Source: a virus. Taken from it: a DNA stretch of 21,002 bases. Within the stretch, counting starts at the first letter, position 1. The number at the start of each line of letters is the position of its first letter. The notes under the pieces are model-generated. The model was not told the DNA's origin. It saw nothing but the letters and a program-made list of their open reading frames with translations, and did not search any database. A program made the translations under genes and the position numbers. The stretch is from UHGV virus genome UHGV-0195968; one strand, written 5' to 3'. This document shows, one piece after another, positions 1 to 14,836 of the stretch.

Positions 1-2
1 TC

Positions 3-146
3 GCAGCCCTCCAGGCAAAGATTGATGCGCAAACAGCTTCAGTAGTTGGCTTGCAACAGGCGATGCACGAAGCGGTGAACGATGCTCTTCGCAATGCGCT
101 CAAGCCAGGCGGCATCCTCTGGAATACACGGTCGCGAGGAATCTGA
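3..146 (+). CDS. 3' end of an upstream ORF (last 47 codons, product unknown)
   Basis: Frame 3 is open from the window edge to TGA at 144-146 (translation ...AALQAKIDAQTASVVGLQQAMHEAVNDALRNALKPGGILWNTRSRGI*). It ends 11 nt before the next start, with GGGAGG in between. No recognisable motif. Confidence 0.3.
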   Translation, partial: AALQAKIDAQTASVVGLQQAMHEAVNDALRNALKPGGILWNTRSRGI

Positions 147-157
147 CGGGAGGTTTT

Positions 158-1615
158 ATGCAGGTCACTATTGATGGTGTCCCATACGCTCCCGCCAGCG
201 TCGTTTCATCACGGATCGGCATTGCCATTTCGACGCATCAGCGCGCAGACGTTTTAAAGCGAGCACTCGAACAGCACATGAAGCATCTTCCCGCCGGTGC
301 GCTGGTGGTGGTAGTCGATGATGGTTCAAAACCTGCAGCGGTAGTTCCACACGGCGTGCAGCTGCTTCGCCATGAAACATCACTCGGCATTGTTGCGTCG
401 AAGAACGCCAGCCTGACAGCCCTGATGGATGCCGGGTGTGAGCATCTGTTTTTATGGGATGATGACGCCTGGCCTATCGCTGATAACTGGCACCTCCCTT
501 ACATCGAATCACCAGAGCCGCACCTGGCTTACCAGTTTCTCGATCTTGCTGGCACGAACAAGCTGAATGACCTTTCGGTGCTTTACCGTGACGATCAGCA
601 TGTGGCGTACACCGGGCAGCGCGGCGTGATGCTTTATTACCACCGCAGCGCCATCGAGAAGGTAGGCGGATTCGATCCGGTTTATGGTCGCGGCATGTAC
701 GAGCACAGCGACCTCGCCTTGCGCATCCATAACGCAGGACTGACTACGTGGGCGTACGCTGATGTCGTCGGTTCAGAAAAGCTGATCCATTCTCTCGATG
801 AGCATGAGGCCGTAGAGCGTTCAGTGCCGAGGCCCGACCGCCAGGCGCTGGTGGAACGTAACGTGAAGATCCACAACGAACGACGTGATACCGGCTTTAC
901 CGGTTACGTTGAATACCGGAAGCAGCGCGACGTGGTAATCACAACGTTGCTCACCAGCCAGCCTGACCCGCAGCGCGGTACGAAAATGGCGGCCTCGCCT
1001 GAGATGCTGGCTAAATGGGCCGCATCACTCCGGCAGTGTGGACGTATCGCGCTGGTGGATGAACTGCAGACGCCACCGGCAGATGTTGAGTTGTACCGCG
1101 TTCCTGAGGTGAAGATGAATGTCTACTTCCGGCGCTGGCTGCATATCTGGCAGCACCTGCGAGATCACCCTGAATACCGGTTCGTCTGGTGTACTGATGG
1201 TACCGATGTCGAAATGCTCCGCGCACCGTGGGAAGAAATGCAGCCCGGGAATGTTTACGTCGGTTCTGAACCGAAGACATACGCCGACACCTGGGCGAAA
1301 CAGAATCATCCTGAGCGTATCTATCAGGAATTCATTGAAGCGCACCGCGGCGATGTGATGCTTAACGCTGGCCTGCTGGGTGGCACCCGCGCTGATGTAA
1401 TGGCGTTCGCTCACGGCATCATCCGTCTTTACTACCGGATCGAAAGTTATCGATTCTGGAAGAAAGAACAGGCTGGCGCCGCGGTGGGGGATATGATCGC
1501 TTTTGGCATTGTTGCTAAATCGCTTGGCGATCGCATTGTCACCGGCCCGCGTATCCACACAGTTTTTAAGACTGATGGTATTGGCAAAGAATGCGCCTGG
1601 TTTAAACACAAATAG
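158..1615 (+). CDS. Two-domain glycosyltransferase: N-terminal GT2 (GT-A fold) domain plus a C-terminal domain that may be a second GT-A-like domain
   Basis: 485-aa ORF with RBS GGGAGG 5 nt upstream of the ATG. GT2 signature order: IGIAISTHQR (first beta-strand), VVVVDDGS, LFLWDDD (DxD), EKVGGFDPVYGRGMYEHSDLALRIHNAG (GT2 C-terminal motif). No obvious transmembrane segment. The C-terminal ~230 aa carry VVITTLLT and FVWCTDGTD, reminiscent of GT8/nucleotide-diphospho-sugar transferase folds. Confidence 0.6.
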   Translation: MQVTIDGVPYAPASVVSSRIGIAISTHQRADVLKRALEQHMKHLPAGALVVVVDDGSKPAAVVPHGVQLLRHETSLGIVASKNASLTALMDAGCEHLFLWDDDAWPIADNWHLPYIESPEPHLAYQFLDLAGTNKLNDLSVLYRDDQHVAYTGQRGVMLYYHRSAIEKVGGFDPVYGRGMYEHSDLALRIHNAGLTTWAYADVVGSEKLIHSLDEHEAVERSVPRPDRQALVERNVKIHNERRDTGFTGYVEYRKQRDVVITTLLTSQPDPQRGTKMAASPEMLAKWAASLRQCGRIALVDELQTPPADVELYRVPEVKMNVYFRRWLHIWQHLRDHPEYRFVWCTDGTDVEMLRAPWEEMQPGNVYVGSEPKTYADTWAKQNHPERIYQEFIEAHRGDVMLNAGLLGGTRADVMAFAHGIIRLYYRIESYRFWKKEQAGAAVGDMIAFGIVAKSLGDRIVTGPRIHTVFKTDGIGKECAWFKHK

Positions 1616-1621
1616 GCTGAT

Positions 1622-2131
1622 ATGAAAAAGACCAGAACTTTCAGTGAAAGATTCTGGGAAAAGGTCGTTGTTGCTTCTCCAGATGAATGCTGGATCTGGA
1701 ATGCGGCTAAGAGAAAGAGTCCTATAGGCGGTGGGAGGTATTTATTTTACGGGCATTTGAAAGCTGGAGTTACTGCTGGCGGGCCTGGAAAAATGATTCT
1801 TGCACACAGAGCTTCATGGGAACTTAGCAACGGACCTATCCCAGACGGATATTTGATTGACCATACCTGCCATAACACTCTTTGCGTCAACCCAAAACAT
1901 CTTCGAATAGCAACACCAAAACAAAACGCTGAAAACAGGCAACGTCACTCCTCTGCGTCAGGATTTCGTGGAGTTACTTGGAATCGGGATATGAAGAAAT
2001 GGTGTGCTCATTATAAAGAGCATGGTACCCGGCATCACCTTGGTTACTTTGACTGTAAGCATGAAGCTGCTGAGGTTGCACGACGAGCCCGTAATGAGGT
2101 GTTTACCCATAATGATGCAGACAGAGATTAA
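1622..2131 (+). CDS. HNH endonuclease with AP2 DNA-binding domain (free-standing homing-endonuclease-like gene)
   Basis: 169-aa ORF. HNH core DHTCHNTLCVNPKHLRIATPKQNAEN; AP2-like segment SGFRGVTWNRDMKKWCAHYKEHGTRHHLGYFDCKHEAAEVARRAR. GC is clearly lower than the flanks (about 43% in the first 100 nt by hand count, against flanks that look high-50s%). Sits 6 nt after the stop of the upstream gene, and its 3' end overlaps the start of the next gene. Confidence 0.7.
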   Translation: MKKTRTFSERFWEKVVVASPDECWIWNAAKRKSPIGGGRYLFYGHLKAGVTAGGPGKMILAHRASWELSNGPIPDGYLIDHTCHNTLCVNPKHLRIATPKQNAENRQRHSSASGFRGVTWNRDMKKWCAHYKEHGTRHHLGYFDCKHEAAEVARRARNEVFTHNDADRD

Positions 2132-2702
2132 GTTTGTTGTGGTTGGCCATCACTCTCGCATAGGTCATGCGCAACGACTTGCCGCGCTGCTGGATGCTCA
2201 TCTGCTTATTGATGACGGTAACCGCGGCGCGAACTGGAATCATCGTCGCGCTATCGAATGGGCTGCTGAGCAACCTTGCCGGGTAGTGGTGTTGGAAGAA
2301 GACGCGCTTCCTGTGCAGGGCTTCACCGATAAGGTAACTGAATGGCTGGTGCGCTTCCCTGACGACATGCTGAGCTTTTATCTCGGTACCGGCCGACCGC
2401 CGCAGTATCAGAAAGAGATTGCCGGAATGCTGGTGGATGCGGATCGCGTCTGTGGTGACCACATCGTATTAAGCAAACTGATTCACGGCGTATGTTATAG
2501 CCCTCCTCGGGGAAGTTTGGCGCGCATGCTCAGTACATGGAACAAAACGCTGGCAGCTGATTACGCTGTCGGTGAGGCATTCGGTGGTCGGGTGATTTAT
2601 CCGTGTTACTCGCTGGTGGATCACGCTGACCTCCAGACGGTTGAGCGTCACCCTGACAACGAGCCGAGGACAGAACGCCGCCGCGCATGGAGGCTGGCAT
2701 AA
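2112..2702 (+). CDS. Glycosyltransferase-like protein, GT25-like (LPS-core-type GT-A) by motif pattern
   Basis: Taken from the internal ATG at 2112 (MMQTEIKFVVVGHH...) of the 2004..2702 ORF, because the upstream extension would run through the HNH-AP2 gene in another frame. Motif order resembles GT25: N-terminal beta-strand IKFVVVGH, GANWNHRRAIEWAAE, acidic VVVLEEDA. No transmembrane segment seen. The family assignment is from memory of the GT25 pattern, not from a search. Confidence 0.45.
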   Translation: MMQTEIKFVVVGHHSRIGHAQRLAALLDAHLLIDDGNRGANWNHRRAIEWAAEQPCRVVVLEEDALPVQGFTDKVTEWLVRFPDDMLSFYLGTGRPPQYQKEIAGMLVDADRVCGDHIVLSKLIHGVCYSPPRGSLARMLSTWNKTLAADYAVGEAFGGRVIYPCYSLVDHADLQTVERHPDNEPRTERRRAWRLA

Positions 2703-2746
2703 GCTGTTGTTTATCCCATCCTTCCTCACTTTGAGCACCGTTACGC

Positions 2747-3100
2747 ATGGAGACTGTCATGAACAAAGAGCCCCGCGTATATGGCAGCCGATGGGATAAG
2801 GCCCGTCTGCGTTTCCTGCAGCAGCACCCACTATGTGTGATGTGCGAGCAGCAGGGGCGGATTACCCCAGCAACGGTGGTTGACCATATCGAGCCCCACA
2901 AACTCAAAGATGCGCTTAAGTCAGGTAACCCGCTGGCCATATCGAAAGCACAGCTCCTGTTCTGGAGTAAAGAGAACTGGCAGCCACTGTGTAAAGCGCA
3001 TCATGACTCAACGAAACAGAGGATGGAGAAGAGCGGCGCGGTAATAGGCTGTGATGCCAATGGCTACCCGCTCGATCCTGCGTCTCACTGGAGCACGTAA
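2747..3100 (+). CDS. Phage HNH endonuclease, packaging-associated (HK97 gp74-like position)
   Basis: 117-aa ORF with HNH motifs VVDHIEPHK and NWQPLCKAHHDSTK and several Cys (CVMCEQ). Lies immediately upstream of the terminase genes. The true start may be the second ATG at 2759, which has GGAG upstream. Host-like GC. Confidence 0.75.
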   Translation: METVMNKEPRVYGSRWDKARLRFLQQHPLCVMCEQQGRITPATVVDHIEPHKLKDALKSGNPLAISKAQLLFWSKENWQPLCKAHHDSTKQRMEKSGAVIGCDANGYPLDPASHWST

Positions 3101-3303
3101 TGAAAGACCTCAGCATTGAATACCGCAATGGAAAATTCGTTCGCCTGGTGATTGATGGCGTGGAGATGAAGGACGTGACATCCATTCAGTTCTCGCACGC
3201 TGTAGGGCAGGAGATGCCGACGGTGACCATTTCAGGTCATGTTGTCTCCGGGCATCGGAAAGGCGATCAGAAACTCGAACAGGTAGACAAACATTCGGCA
3301 TAG
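3100..3303 (+). CDS. Hypothetical small protein (67 aa)
   Basis: ATG overlaps the HNH stop (TAATG), suggesting translational coupling. No recognisable motif, and no RBS was identified beyond the coupling. Confidence 0.35.
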   Translation: MKDLSIEYRNGKFVRLVIDGVEMKDVTSIQFSHAVGQEMPTVTISGHVVSGHRKGDQKLEQVDKHSA

Positions 3304-3486
3304 CGCGGCGGCGGCAAGTCGATTACCTATCATGTGAAATCATTTCAAATGCAACGATATCAAATGAGAATGAATCGCATCAGGGCAGGGGGGGGATCAA
3401 ATCTTCAAAACCTTTGCCCCAAATGACCGCCGCCAAAGTTTGATTTTAACGCTAACCCGATTTTTTTAGTTTTAAGGTGTTGACAT
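3304..3486. other. Putative cos / terminase-recognition region (non-coding)
   Basis: 183 bp without an ORF between the HNH-associated genes and terS. Contains four copies of (T/C)CAAAT(G/C) at 3345, 3360, 3397 and 3419; a G8 run at 3388-3395; and an inverted pair GGCGGCGG (3307-3314) / CCGCCGCC (3427-3434). In HK97-like phages cos lies between the HNH gene and terS. Confidence 0.35.
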
Positions 3487-3972
3487 ATGGCAGATAAACG
3501 AACCCGTTCCGACAGTTCGGCGGCAGCGGTTCAGGCCATGAAAAATGCAGCTGTGGACACCATCGATCCGCCGTCCCATGCAGGTTTGGAGAAAAAAGCC
3601 GAACCATTCTGGCATGACAATATCAGATCGAAAGCTCTGGACAGCTGGACGCCTGCCGACCTGCTGGCCGCCGTAGAACTGGCAAATAATCAGCTCTATA
3701 TCACCGTTTTACGCAAGGATTTACGCAAAGAAGAGCGTATACGCGGGGAGGAGCGAGACGAAGGCCTTATCAAAGACCTCCGCAAGCAAATTGTTGAGCT
3801 ACAACGAACTATCCTGGCTCAGCGCCGCGACCTCCAGATCCATTCACACGCAACCAACGGCGAAAGTCGCGACCAGAAGAAACGTAATCAGAACGATCGT
3901 GATGCACGGAATACCAAAAACGGACATCAGGACCAGGACGACAACCTGATCGCCTTTCCCAAACACGGATAA
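3487..3972 (+). CDS. terS: Terminase small subunit
   Basis: 161-aa ORF directly upstream of the large terminase gene. RBS AAGGTG 8 nt upstream. Highly charged C-terminal half. Assignment rests on position and size, typical of HK97-like packaging modules. Confidence 0.7.
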   Translation: MADKRTRSDSSAAAVQAMKNAAVDTIDPPSHAGLEKKAEPFWHDNIRSKALDSWTPADLLAAVELANNQLYITVLRKDLRKEERIRGEERDEGLIKDLRKQIVELQRTILAQRRDLQIHSHATNGESRDQKKRNQNDRDARNTKNGHQDQDDNLIAFPKHG

Positions 3973-3978
3973 ACGACT

Positions 3979-5493
3979 ATGACGCGAGGTGAGCGTGTAA
4001 TAGCGTTCATTGAGCGCTTTTGCATTGTGCCGGAAGGCAAGCTTCTCGGTAAGGCCATGCGGCTTGACCCATTTCAGAAAGAGTTCATCCTGGCGGTTTA
4101 CGACAATCCAGTCGGTACCGATAAAGCGATACTGAGCATCGCCCGCAAAAACGGCAAGACGGGGCTGATAGCCGGCATCCTGCTGGCGCACCTGGTGGGG
4201 CCAGAAGCGGTACAGAATACCCAGATCGTCAGCGGTGCTCTGAGCCGGGAGCAGGCATCTATCGTTTTCAACCTCGCGGTGAAGATGGTCAACCTGAACC
4301 CAAAATTGCAGGAGATTGTGCACATCACGCCCAGCGGCAAAAAGCTGATCGGGCTGCCGTGTAATGTCGAATATAAGGCGTTATCTGCTGAGGGTAAAAC
4401 CACACACGGACTGTCGCCTGTTCTGGCGATTCTGGACGAAACCGGGCAGGTAAGGGGGCCGCAGGATGATTTTATCGATGCGATCACCACAGCCCAGGGC
4501 GCGCATGAAAATCCGCTGCTGATAGTTATCAGCACTCAGGCGGCGAATGATGCCGATCTGTTAAGCATCTGGATTGATGATGCGGTCAAATCGAAAGATC
4601 CGCACATTGTCTGCCACGTTTACGAAGCGCCAAAAGACGCTGATATCGGTAAGCGGGAATCCTGGCTTGCCGCGAACCCGGCGTTAGGAACCTTCAGATC
4701 CGAAAAAGACATGGCGCGCCAGGCAGAAATGGCCGCGCGAATGCCGAGCTTCGAGAACACCTTCCGCAACCTCAACCTGAACCAGCGCGTTTCCACCGTA
4801 TCCCCGTTTATCTCACGTAGCGTGTGGGAGCTGTGCGGCGACATGCCGGTTAATACGCCGAGGAAGTGGTATGCAGGGCTGGACCTGTCAGCCAGGAATG
4901 ACTTAACGGCGCTGGTTATCGCTGGTGAAGCAGAGGATGGCGTCTGGGATATCTTCCCGTTCTTCTGGACGCCTCAAAAAACGCTGGAGGCACGGTCCAA
5001 AACAGACCGAGCGCCATATGACGTATGGGCCAGAGAGGGGCTTTTGCGCACCACGCCCGGCGCATCGGTCGATTACTCATTCGTGGTTGCCGATATTGCC
5101 GAAATAATCGGTGATTTCGATCTTACCTCAATGGCGTTCGACCGGTGGCGCATTGACCAGTTCAGGAAAGAGGCTGATGACATAGGCCTGAGCCTTCCTT
5201 TGGTTGAGTTCGGCCAGGGCTTCAAGGATATGGGCCCGGCAGTGGACACCCTTGAATCGCTGATGCTTAACGGGCGGGTAAGGCACGGCATGCACCCGGT
5301 ATTAACCATGTGCGCCGGGAACGCGGTGATCGTTAAAGATGCTGCCGGCAACCGTAAGCTGGATAAATCCAAAGCAACGGGCCGTATTGATGGCATGGTC
5401 GCAATGACGATGTCCGTTGGTGCTGCTAATGGGGAAGTTACCGAACAAGGTGGTGACTTCGATGACTTCATTTTCCGACCGCTGAGCATGTGA
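3979..5493 (+). CDS. terL: Terminase large subunit
   Basis: 504 aa. Walker A-like ARKNGKTG and Walker B-like VLAILDETG in the N-terminal ATPase region, with a C-terminal nuclease-like region (RIDGMVAMTMSVGA). Stop overlaps the portal start. Confidence 0.9.
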   Translation: MTRGERVIAFIERFCIVPEGKLLGKAMRLDPFQKEFILAVYDNPVGTDKAILSIARKNGKTGLIAGILLAHLVGPEAVQNTQIVSGALSREQASIVFNLAVKMVNLNPKLQEIVHITPSGKKLIGLPCNVEYKALSAEGKTTHGLSPVLAILDETGQVRGPQDDFIDAITTAQGAHENPLLIVISTQAANDADLLSIWIDDAVKSKDPHIVCHVYEAPKDADIGKRESWLAANPALGTFRSEKDMARQAEMAARMPSFENTFRNLNLNQRVSTVSPFISRSVWELCGDMPVNTPRKWYAGLDLSARNDLTALVIAGEAEDGVWDIFPFFWTPQKTLEARSKTDRAPYDVWAREGLLRTTPGASVDYSFVVADIAEIIGDFDLTSMAFDRWRIDQFRKEADDIGLSLPLVEFGQGFKDMGPAVDTLESLMLNGRVRHGMHPVLTMCAGNAVIVKDAAGNRKLDKSKATGRIDGMVAMTMSVGAANGEVTEQGGDFDDFIFRPLSM

Positions 5494-11005: not shown

Positions 11006-11292
11006 AGTTTCTGATGTCGCTTGCGCTCCGGATGGGGCGCACGCTCTCAGAGCTTCGGCAGAATATGACGGCAAGCGAGCTTCTGATGTGGATTGAGTAC
11101 GACAGGCAAAGTCCGGTTGGCGATATTCGCGGTGACATTCAGGCCGCCCAGATCGTCTCTGCCATCTACGGTTCGCAGGGGGCAAAAGTACCGCTGGACG
11201 ATGCGATCCTGCGCTGGGGTGGTGAGGAGCAATCAGAACCGAATGACCCGTTTGCAGGGCTTGAAGCGGCGCTAACAGCTGCGACACAATAA
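10622..11292 (+). CDS. Tail assembly chaperone G-T fusion made by programmed -1 frameshift (lambda gpGT analogue)
   Basis: The -1 frame is open from 10954 through 11292, overlapping the last 17 codons of the G frame. The motif GGGAAAAG at 10980-10987 (G-frame codons GAA AAG) resembles the lambda G-T slip site GGGAAAG. The expected fusion is about 220 aa. Confidence 0.5.
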
Positions 11293-11296
11293 TTGC

Positions 11297-11325
11297 TTCA
11301 CATGTCATCAATGTGGCGATACGCT
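11297..11325 (+). promoter_or_regulatory. Weak candidate sigma70-like promoter for the moron
   Basis: TTCACA (11297-11302), 17-bp spacer, TACGCT (11320-11325). Lies just after the T stop and upstream of the moron RBS. Poor match to consensus. Confidence 0.2.
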
Positions 11326-11349
11326 CTTTCCTTAAGAAAAGGAGGCGTT

Positions 11350-11538
11350 ATGGAACCACTGGTAGTAGTGTTTGGAATATTCGGCTGGTTGATAAATCTA
11401 ATTGTGATTTTTTATGTAATACGGTTTAGCACAAGGGCAAATGAACAAGTTGAAGCCCTTAAAGAGATAAATAAAAAACAAGATGCGCAAATAGATTTAT
11501 TAATACAAGTCGCTCACAAAAGAAAAGACAGTTTATAA
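11350..11538 (+). CDS. Moron: 62-aa single-pass membrane protein, candidate superinfection-exclusion protein (HK97 gp15-like position)
   Basis: Strong RBS AAGGAGG 4 nt before the ATG. Markedly AT-rich compared with neighbouring genes. Hydrophobic helix PLVVVFGIFGWLINLIVIFYVIRF followed by a charged tail (NEQVEALKEINKKQDAQIDLLIQVAHKRKDSL). Followed by its own terminator. The ORF track's 11293 start adds 19 residues with no RBS. Confidence 0.55.
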   Translation: MEPLVVVFGIFGWLINLIVIFYVIRFSTRANEQVEALKEINKKQDAQIDLLIQVAHKRKDSL

Positions 11539-11569: not shown

Positions 11570-14500
11570 ATGGGTGAAAATATGGCTACGTTGCGCGAAC
11601 TGATCATCAAAATATCTGCAAACTCTCAGTCATTTCAGTCTGAAATTTCTCGTGCTTCAAGAATGGGGAATGACTATTACCGGGTAATGCAGACTGGAGG
11701 ACGCCAAGCGGCCGCAGCTTCGCGTGAAACTCAGCGTGCCTTAGCTGAGGTAACTAGTCAAATAAACACCGCGAAGGCCTCAGCGCTGGGAATGGCAGGT
11801 GCATTTGCTGGAGCATTTGCGACTGGTCATCTTATATCGCTGGCCGATGAATGGAGCTCTGTTAATGCCAGGCTAAAGCAGGCTTCCCAATCGTCTGATG
11901 ATTTCACGGAGTCTCAGCGGGCGCTGATGGATATTAGCCAACGAACCGGAACCGCCTTCTCTGATAATGCGAGTCTTTTTGCGCGTTCCGCCGCATCAAT
12001 GCGTGAATACGGATACAGTTCGCAGCAAGTTCTGGATGTAACCGAGGCCATTTCTACTGGACTAAAGCTATCCGGCGCCAGCACGGCAGAGGCAAGTTCT
12101 GTTATCACCCAGTTTAGTCAGGCATTAGCTCAGGGCGTTCTGCGGGGCGAGGAATTCAACTCTGTTAACGAAAACGGTGATCGAGTTATCCGTGCGCTGG
12201 CCGCTGGGATGGGTGTAGCTCGTAAAGATCTGAAGGCAATGGCCGATCAGGGGATGCTAACCGCAGATAAAGTTGTCCCGGCCCTGATAAGTCAACTTGG
12301 CACTATGCGTGGTGAATTTGAGGCAATGCCGCAGACCGTTTCTGCTGCCACGACGAAAGTCGAAAATGCTTTCATGGCATGGGTAGGTGGAGCTAATGAA
12401 GCTACTGGTGCGACAAGTGCTCTTGTTGCTGTATTGAATACAGTTTCTGACAATATCGACACTGTGGCTACGGCTGCCGGAGCTTTGGCTGCAATAGGTG
12501 GAGCTCGCTATCTTGGAGGGATGTTTGGCGATCTTGGGAACCAAACGGCGCAATTAATAGATGCCAGAAAGAACGAAATTGCGCTCGCATCTGCAAGGGC
12601 TGAATCTGCTACCCAATCACAACGAAAGGCGGCAGCAGATGCGATTGCTGCCGAGCGTGCTTATCAGCTCTCGCTATCCGAGTTGGAACTTGCAAAAAAC
12701 ACAAATGCAGAAGCGACAGCTACACAAAATTCTATTGCCAAACGGCGCGAAATGATAGCCGCCAATGCCACTCTCGTTCAGTCAAATAAAGCAGTATCAG
12801 CGTCGCAAGAAGCACTCAACCGATCAACATCGGTAATGAATTTATTCAAGTCTGGCGCTACGGGGCTTTTGTCGTTAGTTGGTGGTTTGCCAGGAATTTT
12901 AATGTTGGGTGCTGGGGCGTGGTACATGATGTATCAACGCCAAGAACAAGCCAGGGAATCTGCAATCCAATATGCGGACACAATCGAGCAGGTACGAGAT
13001 AATCTGAAATCAATGTCTCAGACGCAGATATCCGCCAACCTTGGACAGGCGAATATTTCACTGGATGCTCAAAATAGTGCGATTGAACAGCAGAAGCAGA
13101 AAGTTGCTGAATTATCCAATCAACTTTATAACGCAAAATTAGCAGCCAATTCTGCTTCAGAGGGAACATGGCTGTATAACGATGCGGTTGAGAAAGCAGC
13201 AGAGTTTGCTTCAGAACTTGCGGTTGAAGAAGGCCGACTTGAGCAAATGCTCAATAAAAGAAAGCAAACACAACAGTTAATAAACGACATAACTGATCAG
13301 GCTATAAATAAAACAGTAGAAATGGCTGGCGCCGTAAGTTCTCTTACAGAGATGTATGACCGTCTGAACAAGGTTTCCAGACAGTCTACAGCAGTGTCCC
13401 CACCAAAATATGCAGGGCCTGTACTTCCTGCACTTGATAATAAGCAGCAGCAAGCTATAGACAAGGCGCAGCGACAGCTTGAGTTGTCCGGTCTTAAGGG
13501 ATTGGACAAAACCCGCAAGCAGGCGGAATTCGATGCATCTGACCTTAATCTCCCTGCTGGTTGGCGTGAGAAGTATGTCAGCATGGAAGTTGAGTCAGCC
13601 AGGCAGTTGCAAGCTATTCGTGACTCAAGCCGCCATAAGGGCGGGAAATCCGAGGCGGAAAAAACAGCTGATGCCTATGACAAGCTGATCAAACAGCAAA
13701 AAGAGCAGATTGCCCTGCAAGGCCAGAATACTGAACTGGCGAAGGTTAAATACCAGGTCAGCCAGGGCGAACTTGCTTCTCTGACAGAAGCCCAGAAAAA
13801 GACGGTATTGCAGAATGCTACGCTGATTGACCAGGTTAAATTACGTGAGCAACTGCGAAATTACGAAGCCAACCTTGCCGACAGTAACGCCAGCGCCCGC
13901 GCAGCCAATGAAGCGCAACTGCTGGGATACGGGCAGGGAACCAGGTTCCGTGAAAGACTTCAGGAGCAGTTCAATCTGCGTAAGGAGTTTGAGCAGAAGA
14001 ATACCGATCTTCTCCGCCAGCGTCAGGCTGGTGAAATCGACGAGACGTTCTATCAGCAGGGGCTGGCACTTAATAAGCGCTACCTCGAAGAGCGCCTGCT
14101 CGACCAGGAGGGATATTACGCAGCTTCTGATGCGCAGCGTGACGACTGGATGACGGGACTGTCTGAGGGTTATGCGAACTGGGTGGACGAAGCTACTGAT
14201 TATTCTTCCATGGCCGCTGACGGCATGAAGCAGGCCATGGGTGGCGCGGTCACCACGATCACCGACATGCTCAATGGCAACGTTGACAGCTGGAAGGACT
14301 GGGGCGTCAGCGTACTGAAGATTATCCAGAACGTCCTGGTGAATATGGCTGTTGCTAATGGCGTCAGCTCAATTGGATCACTGTTCAGTTTTGGCGCCTC
14401 GTCAGCCGCAACCGCCAGCAGCGGTACCGCTATTCAGAATGCCGGCGCGAACTTTACCTTTAATGCGAAGGGTAATGTTTACGACTCTCCGTCCCTGAGC

Positions 14501-14836
14501 GCTTACAGCAATGGCGTTTTTCAGACGCCTCAGCTGTTTGCTTTTGCCAAAGGCGCAGGCGTTTTTGCCGAGGCTGGTCCGGAAGCCATTATGCCGCTTA
14601 CGCGCGCCGCTGATGGTTCGCTGGGCGTTCGGGCAGTTGGTACTCCGCAGGTCTCCGGCGGTGTGCCTTCAGTTAACTTCGGCGATATCAATATTCAGGG
14701 TGGATCACCACAGGCAGCAAGTCAGGGAACCGCCGGCGCCGCTGGCAGACAACTGAAAGATGCCATCACTGGCGTCATTAACGAACAGGCCAGCATGCCG
14801 GGCTCGCCTCTGTGGCGATTAATCAAGGGAGTTTAA
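11570..14836 (+). CDS. Tail tape measure protein (lambda gpH-like)
   Basis: 1088 aa, largely alpha-helical/coiled-coil in composition, with an internal hydrophobic segment (LLSLVGGLPGILMLGAGAWYMMY). Position between G-T and M. The start may be the in-frame ATG at 11582. Confidence 0.9.
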   Translation: MGENMATLRELIIKISANSQSFQSEISRASRMGNDYYRVMQTGGRQAAAASRETQRALAEVTSQINTAKASALGMAGAFAGAFATGHLISLADEWSSVNARLKQASQSSDDFTESQRALMDISQRTGTAFSDNASLFARSAASMREYGYSSQQVLDVTEAISTGLKLSGASTAEASSVITQFSQALAQGVLRGEEFNSVNENGDRVIRALAAGMGVARKDLKAMADQGMLTADKVVPALISQLGTMRGEFEAMPQTVSAATTKVENAFMAWVGGANEATGATSALVAVLNTVSDNIDTVATAAGALAAIGGARYLGGMFGDLGNQTAQLIDARKNEIALASARAESATQSQRKAAADAIAAERAYQLSLSELELAKNTNAEATATQNSIAKRREMIAANATLVQSNKAVSASQEALNRSTSVMNLFKSGATGLLSLVGGLPGILMLGAGAWYMMYQRQEQARESAIQYADTIEQVRDNLKSMSQTQISANLGQANISLDAQNSAIEQQKQKVAELSNQLYNAKLAANSASEGTWLYNDAVEKAAEFASELAVEEGRLEQMLNKRKQTQQLINDITDQAINKTVEMAGAVSSLTEMYDRLNKVSRQSTAVSPPKYAGPVLPALDNKQQQAIDKAQRQLELSGLKGLDKTRKQAEFDASDLNLPAGWREKYVSMEVESARQLQAIRDSSRHKGGKSEAEKTADAYDKLIKQQKEQIALQGQNTELAKVKYQVSQGELASLTEAQKKTVLQNATLIDQVKLREQLRNYEANLADSNASARAANEAQLLGYGQGTRFRERLQEQFNLRKEFEQKNTDLLRQRQAGEIDETFYQQGLALNKRYLEERLLDQEGYYAASDAQRDDWMTGLSEGYANWVDEATDYSSMAADGMKQAMGGAVTTITDMLNGNVDSWKDWGVSVLKIIQNVLVNMAVANGVSSIGSLFSFGASSAATASSGTAIQNAGANFTFNAKGNVYDSPSLSAYSNGVFQTPQLFAFAKGAGVFAEAGPEAIMPLTRAADGSLGVRAVGTPQVSGGVPSVNFGDINIQGGSPQAASQGTAGAAGRQLKDAITGVINEQASMPGSPLWRLIKGV

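Follow-up and report, generated by a model that had tools for sequence, protein, structure and literature searches.

The window analysed here is a 21,002-nt stretch of the virus genome UHGV-0195968, read on one strand from 5′ to 3′; it covers the late region of an HK97-like prophage (Hendrixvirinae) from the Enterobacter cloacae complex. Between two glycosyltransferase genes, designated GT1 and GT2 below, it carries at positions 1622–2131 a small open reading frame (ORF) which a first-pass annotation, made from the letters alone, had described as a homing-endonuclease-like gene of low GC content, recently inserted into an intergenic site as a selfish element. We examined this putative endonuclease gene, its product and the junction at which it lies by domain searches, structure prediction and comparison with related loci.

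The endonuclease gene and its product

The locus is made up of the following features:

158..1615, + strand: GT1, upstream glycosyltransferase gene, 485 aa (PHROG 1579 'glycosyltransferase', 2.9e-252)
1616..1621, + strand: spacer GCTGAT, 6 nt from the GT1 stop to the endonuclease ATG (sequence reading)
1622..2131, + strand: free-standing HNH-AP2 gene, predicted homing endonuclease, ATG start, 169 aa (Pfam, PHROG, AlphaFold2)
1799..1930, + strand: HNH_3 (His-Me finger) nuclease core, aa 60–103 (Pfam E=1.9e-14, 53.4 bits, cut-off 24.8)
1958..2101, + strand: AP2 DNA-binding domain, aa 113–160 (Pfam E=1.4e-8, 35.3 bits, cut-off 33.3)
2102..2131, + strand: C-terminal tail FTHNDADR(D) and stop codon (family-conserved)
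2112..2702, + strand: GT2, downstream gene, 196 aa (PHROG 854 'glucosyltransferase', 2e-70)

The spacing given in the first-pass annotation was accurate: the ORF starts 6 nt past the GT1 stop codon (TAG, 1613–1615), with just a weak AGG Shine-Dalgarno-like element upstream of its ATG, and as GT2 begins with the ATG at 2112, the 3′ end of the ORF overlaps the GT2 start by 20 nt. GT1, which contributes the left side of the junction through its 3′ end, is syntenic across all related loci and matches Pfam Glycos_transf_2 weakly, under the cut-off (E=8.5e-4). For GT2 we obtained no Pfam match even at E<=10 and no NCBIfam match, PHROG 854 being the sole match; the earlier designation of this gene as 'GT25-like' is thus unsupported.

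Both domains attributed to the ORF were recovered over their Pfam cut-offs. In addition, zf-His_Me_endon matched below threshold and the best PHROG was 3593 'HNH endonuclease' (1.5e-55), with no match in NCBIfam. The HNH_3 core holds D80-H81, C83, C88, H93 and N102, with E104 immediately after it. Across 76 homologues H81, C83, C88, H93 and N102 are invariant, and D80, C23, H62, R63 and E104 reach at least 90% conservation; the window protein has every one of these residues. The core would thus be an 'HNN'-type His-Me finger with a Cys/His zinc site, as judged from residue roles in the family. The tail FTHNDADR is kept in >90% of homologues, including gp56 of mycobacteriophage Corndog. A confident AlphaFold2 model was obtained (mean pLDDT 88.2, pTM 0.75), and its best Foldseek matches in the Protein Data Bank (PDB) were I-PpoI, plant and apicomplexan AP2 domains and I-HmuI. 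A PDB sequence search with the protein returned weak apicomplexan AP2 matches only (E>=0.04) and no nuclease match.

A scan of the whole window against Rfam matched no family and hence no group I or group II intron. Similarly, the flanks are two separate overlapping ORFs in alleles that are empty at this position, with no intron or intein, so that the gene is free-standing.

Its composition is foreign. GC content is 45.3%, with 36.5% at third codon positions (GC3), against 55.7% and 60.9% in GT1 and 55.7% and 56.3% in GT2; the value of about 43% counted by hand in the annotation for the first 100 nt is exact. Of all 510-nt windows across the 21 kb, those of such low GC form the lowest 4%, and the GC3 is second lowest among 23 + strand genes (z = -2.7). 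The sliding-window part of the check proposed in the annotation was therefore borne out, whereas codon usage followed it only in part, since a synonymous-codon likelihood test found the gene only moderately unusual (z = -1.6, 10th percentile). Uniform GC or a lack of HNH and AP2 domains had been named beforehand as grounds for giving up the assignment; exact calculation and the hidden Markov model search found neither.

A simple consensus scan of 1300–3600 detected no sigma-70-like promoter and no + strand terminator-like site; a single terminator-like match lies on the minus strand (1946–1925). The endonuclease gene thus lacks the flanking promoter and terminator of its own that characterize a moron. 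Because neither signal was found, the gene is co-oriented with the late operon and packing is tight, it is most likely expressed by read-through of the late transcript.

Enterobacter asburiae encodes an identical protein, WP_211959004.1, labelled 'HNH endonuclease' at NCBI. The cluster at 90% identity also comprises proteins of E. hormaechei, E. cloacae, E. roggenkampii, Klebsiella pneumoniae, K. quasipneumoniae, Citrobacter freundii and Escherichia phage Fraca.

The GT1/GT2 junction in related phages

We compared the junction in 86 loci, cited below by L-number where needed, namely the 80 viral contigs nearest to the window GT2 and six genomes; this sample was not de-duplicated and its proportions are biased. 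Both glycosyltransferase genes are held by 84 of them, and these serve as denominator: the junction is empty in 47, carries an HNH-AP2 gene in nine and other cargo in 28. The gene is absent from the close relatives Fostie, LMessi, HK542, ENT39118, ECP1 and L014–L016, the match of the phage relatives being ~0.5 kb shorter. Alignment with relatives free of the insert, proposed earlier as the way to define its boundaries, placed them at ~1489 and ~2131–2219. A megablast of window 1400–2400 against complete E. coli genomes yielded 3 partial endonuclease-free matches only, unusable for population counts.

Each of 49 empty alleles has a 16-nt overlap between GT1 and GT2. Accordingly, of the earlier claim of a recent insertion into an intergenic site, recent acquisition stands and the intergenic site does not. 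The compact junction of empty alleles is GGTAAGGAGGCCGCATGGTGGAAACACAAGTGAAG, read in frame as ...GGT AAG GAG GCC GCA TGG TGG AAA CAC AAG TGA, with the GT2 ATG within GCATGG and the GT2 Shine-Dalgarno sequence AAGGAGG located in GT1 codons. On either side of the gene, occupied alleles can be aligned with empty ones base for base, and in the occupied allele the junction is rebuilt: GT2 codons 1–6 lie inside the C-terminal codons of the endonuclease (...N-D-A-D-R), of which AAT GAT GCA GAC AGA include the GT2 start ATGATG. The GT2 N-terminus accordingly reads MMQTEIKFVVVG in the window and MVETQVKFVVVG in empty alleles. Since the window reads AAAGAAT in place of AAGGAGG, translation of GT2 is probably coupled with the end of endonuclease translation.

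A search for target-site duplications or terminal repeats around the insert found only short, chance-level repeats; what looks like a duplication of the overlap region is a weak one, with 15/19 and 12/19 matches by eye count. We also considered and rejected an origin of the FTHNDADR tail from the GT2 start, the tail being family-wide and present in actinophage homologues in unrelated contexts. Nor did the data bear out the idea that the compact junction, as the most conserved sequence, is the target: its entropy is under the local average, but positions 250–295 nt into GT2 are more conserved.

The cargo found in the remaining loci is unrelated to the endonuclease, low in GC (35–51%) and usually encoded on the minus strand. 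Its products comprise an IraP-like RpoS anti-adaptor, a DUF1883 protein and a 182–192-aa protein with a CxxCxxCC zinc/iron-chelating domain, alongside several small unknown ORFs. Examples at the GT1/GT2 junction, from loci within L008–L093, are:

L087 2656–2991, minus strand: cargo gene
L046 2597–2860, minus strand: cargo gene
L060 2336–2914, minus strand: cargo gene

At the right end of nearly all cargo inserts we observed the same hairpin, a T-run and GGAG, then CTGGTGGCTGAAGA as the rebuilt GT2 start. Because unrelated cargo occupies the same junction in a third of relatives, the junction is a general hotspot and not a homing site alone.

Among loci retrieved with GT2 or with the endonuclease, about five HNH-AP2 lineages occupy the junction, with 34–57% mutual identity. 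Compared with the window protein they are:

Fraca (L005, LR597645.1) 2501–3010: 97.6% protein identity, intact at 169 aa; the record annotates a 46-aa fragment only
mEp390 gp55 (YP_007112472.1): 54% identity, public label HNH endonuclease
Salmonella type: 54% identity; frameshifted in FSL SP-016 (L006, 2486–3020), intact in L095
Rahnella, Erwinia and metagenome copies: 50–55% identity
AsXd-1 type: 39% identity, 193 aa, extra Cys-rich N-terminal extension
L043/L064 type: 36% identity, 189–201 aa

The window, mEp390/Rahnella and Salmonella types and the Erwinia and metagenome relatives all lie between a 485-aa GT1 and a ~200-aa GT2, and the site is kept despite differing packaging modules (HK97-type, Terminase_2/TerL, lambda GpA-type and Terminase_4). 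All copies share the orientation of the operon and abut GT2 by a stop/start overlap. The AsXd-1 type has an overlap of 8 nt and the L043 type one of 4 nt, against 20 nt for the window, mEp390 and Salmonella types. At 36–39% identity, the AsXd-1 and L043 types lie further from the window gene than actinophage homologues such as Corndog gp56 (48%) do; a neighbour-joining tree, without support values, was used only alongside these pairwise identities. Because two lineages so distant share the site, the comparison indicates that the junction was invaded repeatedly and not by one ancient insertion. A position of Corndog gp56 beside glycosyltransferase genes was considered and rejected, its neighbours being tail chaperone and tape measure genes. 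The frameshift in FSL SP-016 is either decay or a sequencing error; together with truncated cluster members, this copy is consistent with the gain-and-decay cycle of homing endonuclease genes.

Another gene containing HNH_3, of ~186 aa and with an AP2-like C-terminal part, was observed directly upstream of GT1 in several loci, its stop overlapping the GT1 start; it is ~32–36% identical to the junction endonucleases, so that in some phages, L106 among them, GT1 is flanked by endonuclease genes on both sides:

L014 ~1000–1560 and L106 974–1534: second HNH_3 gene; also in L015, L016, L021, L037 and L056

The flanks of the window gene define two further features:

1454..2219, + strand: exchanged block, i.e. 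the endonuclease gene with 168 nt of the GT1 3′ end and 88 nt of the GT2 5′ end (766-nt run, 100% identical to L106)
1489..1615, + strand: GT1 3′ haplotype linked to endonuclease occupancy, the last ~125 nt of GT1 (allele comparison)

L106 encodes an identical endonuclease protein; the rest of its GT2 is ~58–74% and everything further downstream ~45–60% identical to the window, and its terminase is of another type (Terminase_4). The copies of Fraca, L084 and L094 share 97.6–98% DNA identity over the gene. In these comparisons GT1 identity declines leftwards, and to the right of the gene identity drops to ~60% within GT2, the adjoining GT2 proteins being only 70–78% identical to that of the window. 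Against the endonuclease-free L014–L017 the right flank shows 2 mismatches in 2131–2197 and is then 100% identical for >1.1 kb (from ~2198).

On the left, 1353–1488 lies within 1–3 nt of the empty alleles L001, L073 and L048, whereas 1489–1615 differs from these same alleles at ~29% of positions, mostly synonymously. Its first part, 1489–1560, has 0–2 mismatches with alleles carrying other endonuclease lineages (L002, L004, L043; mEp390, AsXd-1, L043) and is rare among empty alleles. This haplotype is a candidate co-conversion tract or cleavage-immune version of the target. Breakpoints can thus be placed at ~1473–1489 on the left, relative to empty alleles, and between ~2131 and 2219 on the right; similar sharp steps in identity were seen for the AsXd-1 type, ~100 nt upstream of its gene, and for the mEp390 type, where the step falls at the 3′ end of the gene. 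The flanks that travel along are short, ~100–170 nt on the left and ~0–90 nt on the right, and the blocks measure ~0.77 kb. GT1 itself is a fine-scale mosaic of segments best-matched by different loci. Because the closest relatives of GT1 and GT2 differ on the two sides of the gene, the endonuclease gene sits on a recombination boundary within the cluster, its short flanks moving with it.

Proposed homing and the competing explanations

We consider it very likely that ORF 1622–2131 is a free-standing HNH(HNN)-AP2 homing-endonuclease gene at the GT1/GT2 junction, with homing as its predicted activity. The comparisons likewise support a selfish mobile gene that arrived recently by recombination; as the annotation had supposed, it does not belong to the glycosyltransferase function.

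A simple model of its spread can be proposed. Sequence comparison shows that the gene and its short flanks moved recently among divergent phages by homologous exchange. In this model the AP2 domain would dock the protein on a specific sequence in the endonuclease-free allele of a co-resident or co-infecting phage, this sequence being either the final ~125 nt of GT1 or the compact junction with GT2. Nicking or cutting of the DNA at that position would fall to the His-Me finger (D80/H81/N102, with the Cys/His zinc site), and repair from the occupied allele would copy in the gene and the adjoining GT1 3′ haplotype. This haplotype and the split junction may then render carriers immune to cutting.

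Several observations weigh against homing. Our literature search found no cleavage or homing assay for this protein or a close homologue. The structural matches to solved nucleases have weak Foldseek E-values (0.01–0.08), which are probably due to the two-domain model, and Foldseek was used as supporting evidence only. Among empty alleles the compact junction shows no more than moderate conservation, which weakens the idea that it is the target. A rough dN/dS of ~0.3 was obtained among four window-type copies, from 10–12 differences only. Finally, low-GC cargo without a nuclease lies at the junction, mostly in the opposite orientation, in 28 of the 84 loci, and exchange at this position therefore needs no endonuclease.

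The last point is also the basis of an alternative in which the gene, an endonuclease gene or a descendant of one, is passive cargo at a recombination hotspot. As with the neighbouring morons, its spread and the sharp identity boundaries would stem from ordinary homologous recombination among lambdoid phages, with its own nuclease uninvolved and perhaps inactive. The mosaic structure of GT1 would fit such traffic. However, every catalytic and zinc position is conserved, about five HNH-AP2 lineages occupy one site, all co-oriented and each with its own GT2 overlap (20, 8 or 4 nt), the perfectly identical 766-nt block is centred on the gene, and the flank haplotype common to several endonuclease lineages is rare in empty alleles. 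We therefore regard passive transport as unlikely.

Still less probable is a domesticated nuclease or DNA-binding protein serving in competitor exclusion, in regulation of late or glycosyltransferase genes through AP2, or as a gp74-like packaging aid: although AP2 and CapR domains derived from endonucleases have been co-opted as repressors (CasPRs, bioRxiv 10.64898/2026.02.23.707548; CapR, PMC10448857), the HNH protein gp74 of HK97 acts as a packaging factor (PMC10448857) and the gene lies in the late operon near the terminase genes, it is missing in over half of close relatives and replaceable by unrelated cargo, the window has its own gp74-type HNH gene (2747–3100), the nuclease domain is intact, unlike in CasPR-type proteins, for which none is described, and competitor exclusion is mechanistically the same activity as homing.

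Homing by the endonuclease may be extended to a joint reading of the locus, possible though rather doubtful, in which the 16-nt overlap is a contested landing pad, the 1489–1615 haplotype a determinant of immunity to cleavage, and endonuclease-driven exchange a source of reshuffled GT1/GT2 alleles. The ~5 HNH-AP2 lineages and many host-modulating cargo genes would then replace one another at the overlap. If the haplotype is the immunity determinant, the real target would lie inside GT1, ~100–170 nt upstream of the insertion. Exchange of this kind would reshuffle GT1/GT2 alleles among enterobacterial phages, and perhaps glycosylation specificity too. The suggestion of the annotation that the gene could drive mobility of the whole cluster is, in contrast, unsupported: the co-travelling flanks are ~0.1–0.2 kb and the closest relatives of GT1 and GT2 differ on its two sides. 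With exchanged blocks of only ~0.77 kb, the gene would therefore reshuffle GT1/GT2 alleles rather than move the cluster.

The junction offers a clean natural case in temperate enterobacterial phages, one site being available in empty, endonuclease and cargo states. The 766-bp identical block demonstrates a recent transfer and the flank haplotype shared across lineages hints at the location of the target; cleavage specificity and co-conversion are directly testable with the available phages HK542, mEp390 and Fostie. For annotation purposes, the gene should be kept outside the glycosyltransferase pathway, and the whole copy of Fraca remains to be annotated.

Known systems and the surrounding late region

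HNH-AP2 proteins are an established class of phage homing endonucleases (PMC10448857, PMC2248197), whose definition is credited to Magnani et al. 2004 as cited in these two papers. Examples are group I genes of the Xanthomonas phages Xp10, OP1 and Xop411 and the 'IPA-HNH' genes gp59 and gp209 of ICP1 (PMC2248197, PMC10448857). Since the class is known and both the identical protein and mEp390 gp55 are publicly labelled HNH endonuclease, the gene itself is routine. Like other members, its product is ~170 aa long, with an N-terminal His-Me finger and a C-terminal AP2 domain, and like them the window lineage stands alone between phage genes, is present in some genomes and absent from others, and includes decayed copies (PMC2248197). 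It differs in keeping to one junction across numerous enterobacterial lambdoid phages; the genes of the Xanthomonas phages are scattered and lack conserved flanks (PMC2248197). Moreover, the ICP1 genes fail the HNH_3 profile (PMC10448857), which the window gene matches. The genes of mEp390 (gp55), FSL SP-016, Fraca and AsXd-1 share with it both orientation and the site between the same two glycosyltransferase genes, although the mEp390 and AsXd-1 proteins diverge in sequence, the latter with its Cys-rich extension. None of the Xanthomonas phage and ICP1 comparators is a close homologue.

The free-standing homing endonucleases of phage T4 belong to the Seg and Mob families (SegF, SegG and MobE for example) and are known for 'intronless homing' and localized marker exclusion. 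In intronless homing a break is made in the endonuclease-free genome, flanking markers are co-converted, and differences in target sequence protect the carriers. The window gene resembles them in lying free-standing between conserved genes, with no intron, and in showing an identity peak at the gene, decaying flanks and a flank haplotype. On the other hand, its DNA-binding module is AP2, whereas those of T4 are zinc-finger or GIY-YIG-linked modules, and its host is a temperate lambdoid phage instead of T4. An overview of the T4 enzymes is given in PMC10448857, where the location of nuclease genes at boundaries of genetic exchange between phages is described as a known pattern. The present junction adds to the evidence for such marking of boundaries. 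We found no paper on this junction, on this endonuclease lineage or on these glycosyltransferases in our literature search.

CasPR-type proteins combine CapR and AP2 DNA-binding domains (plus a helix-turn-helix) with no nuclease domain described (bioRxiv 10.64898/2026.02.23.707548). The window protein differs from this arrangement of DNA-binding domains without nuclease, as its HNH_3 domain is intact and Pfam detected no CapR domain in it.

The other HNH gene of the window is a separate one:

2747–3100, + strand: gp74-type HNH gene (PF01844; PHROG 2323), HK97 gp74 homologue

It belongs to the HNH superfamily and to the same late-gene neighbourhood as the endonuclease. Proteins of this type are nevertheless of another Pfam family, have no AP2 domain, measure ~115 aa and are encoded upstream of terminase in nearly every relative examined, whereas the endonuclease ORF, which most relatives lack, matches HNH_3 together with AP2 and does not match PF01844. 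The gene order is GT1, endonuclease ORF, GT2, gp74-type HNH, small and large terminase, and portal onwards. Window 1–5100 recurs with 100% identity in a metagenome contig (L103).

Between the small terminase gene and a 67-aa ORF, positions 3304–3486 (183 nt) are non-coding and include a G-run, GGGGGGGG. The linear records of the related phages mEp390, HK542 and HK97 terminate ~40–90 nt past the position matching window 3400. The non-coding interval is probably the cos region.

Two other stretches of low GC were observed in the window. An 81-aa ORF for a YebO-like small membrane protein (11293–11538, + strand; Pfam YebO E=3e-9), situated between the tail assembly chaperone gene (11014–11292) and the tape measure gene (11570–14836), has 35% GC and a GC3 of 30.5%, the window minimum, and looks like another inserted cargo gene. 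The second stretch, 12619–13630, lies within the tape measure gene, with 510-nt windows at or below ~46% GC; the overall GC3 of this gene is 48%, against a window average of ~58%.

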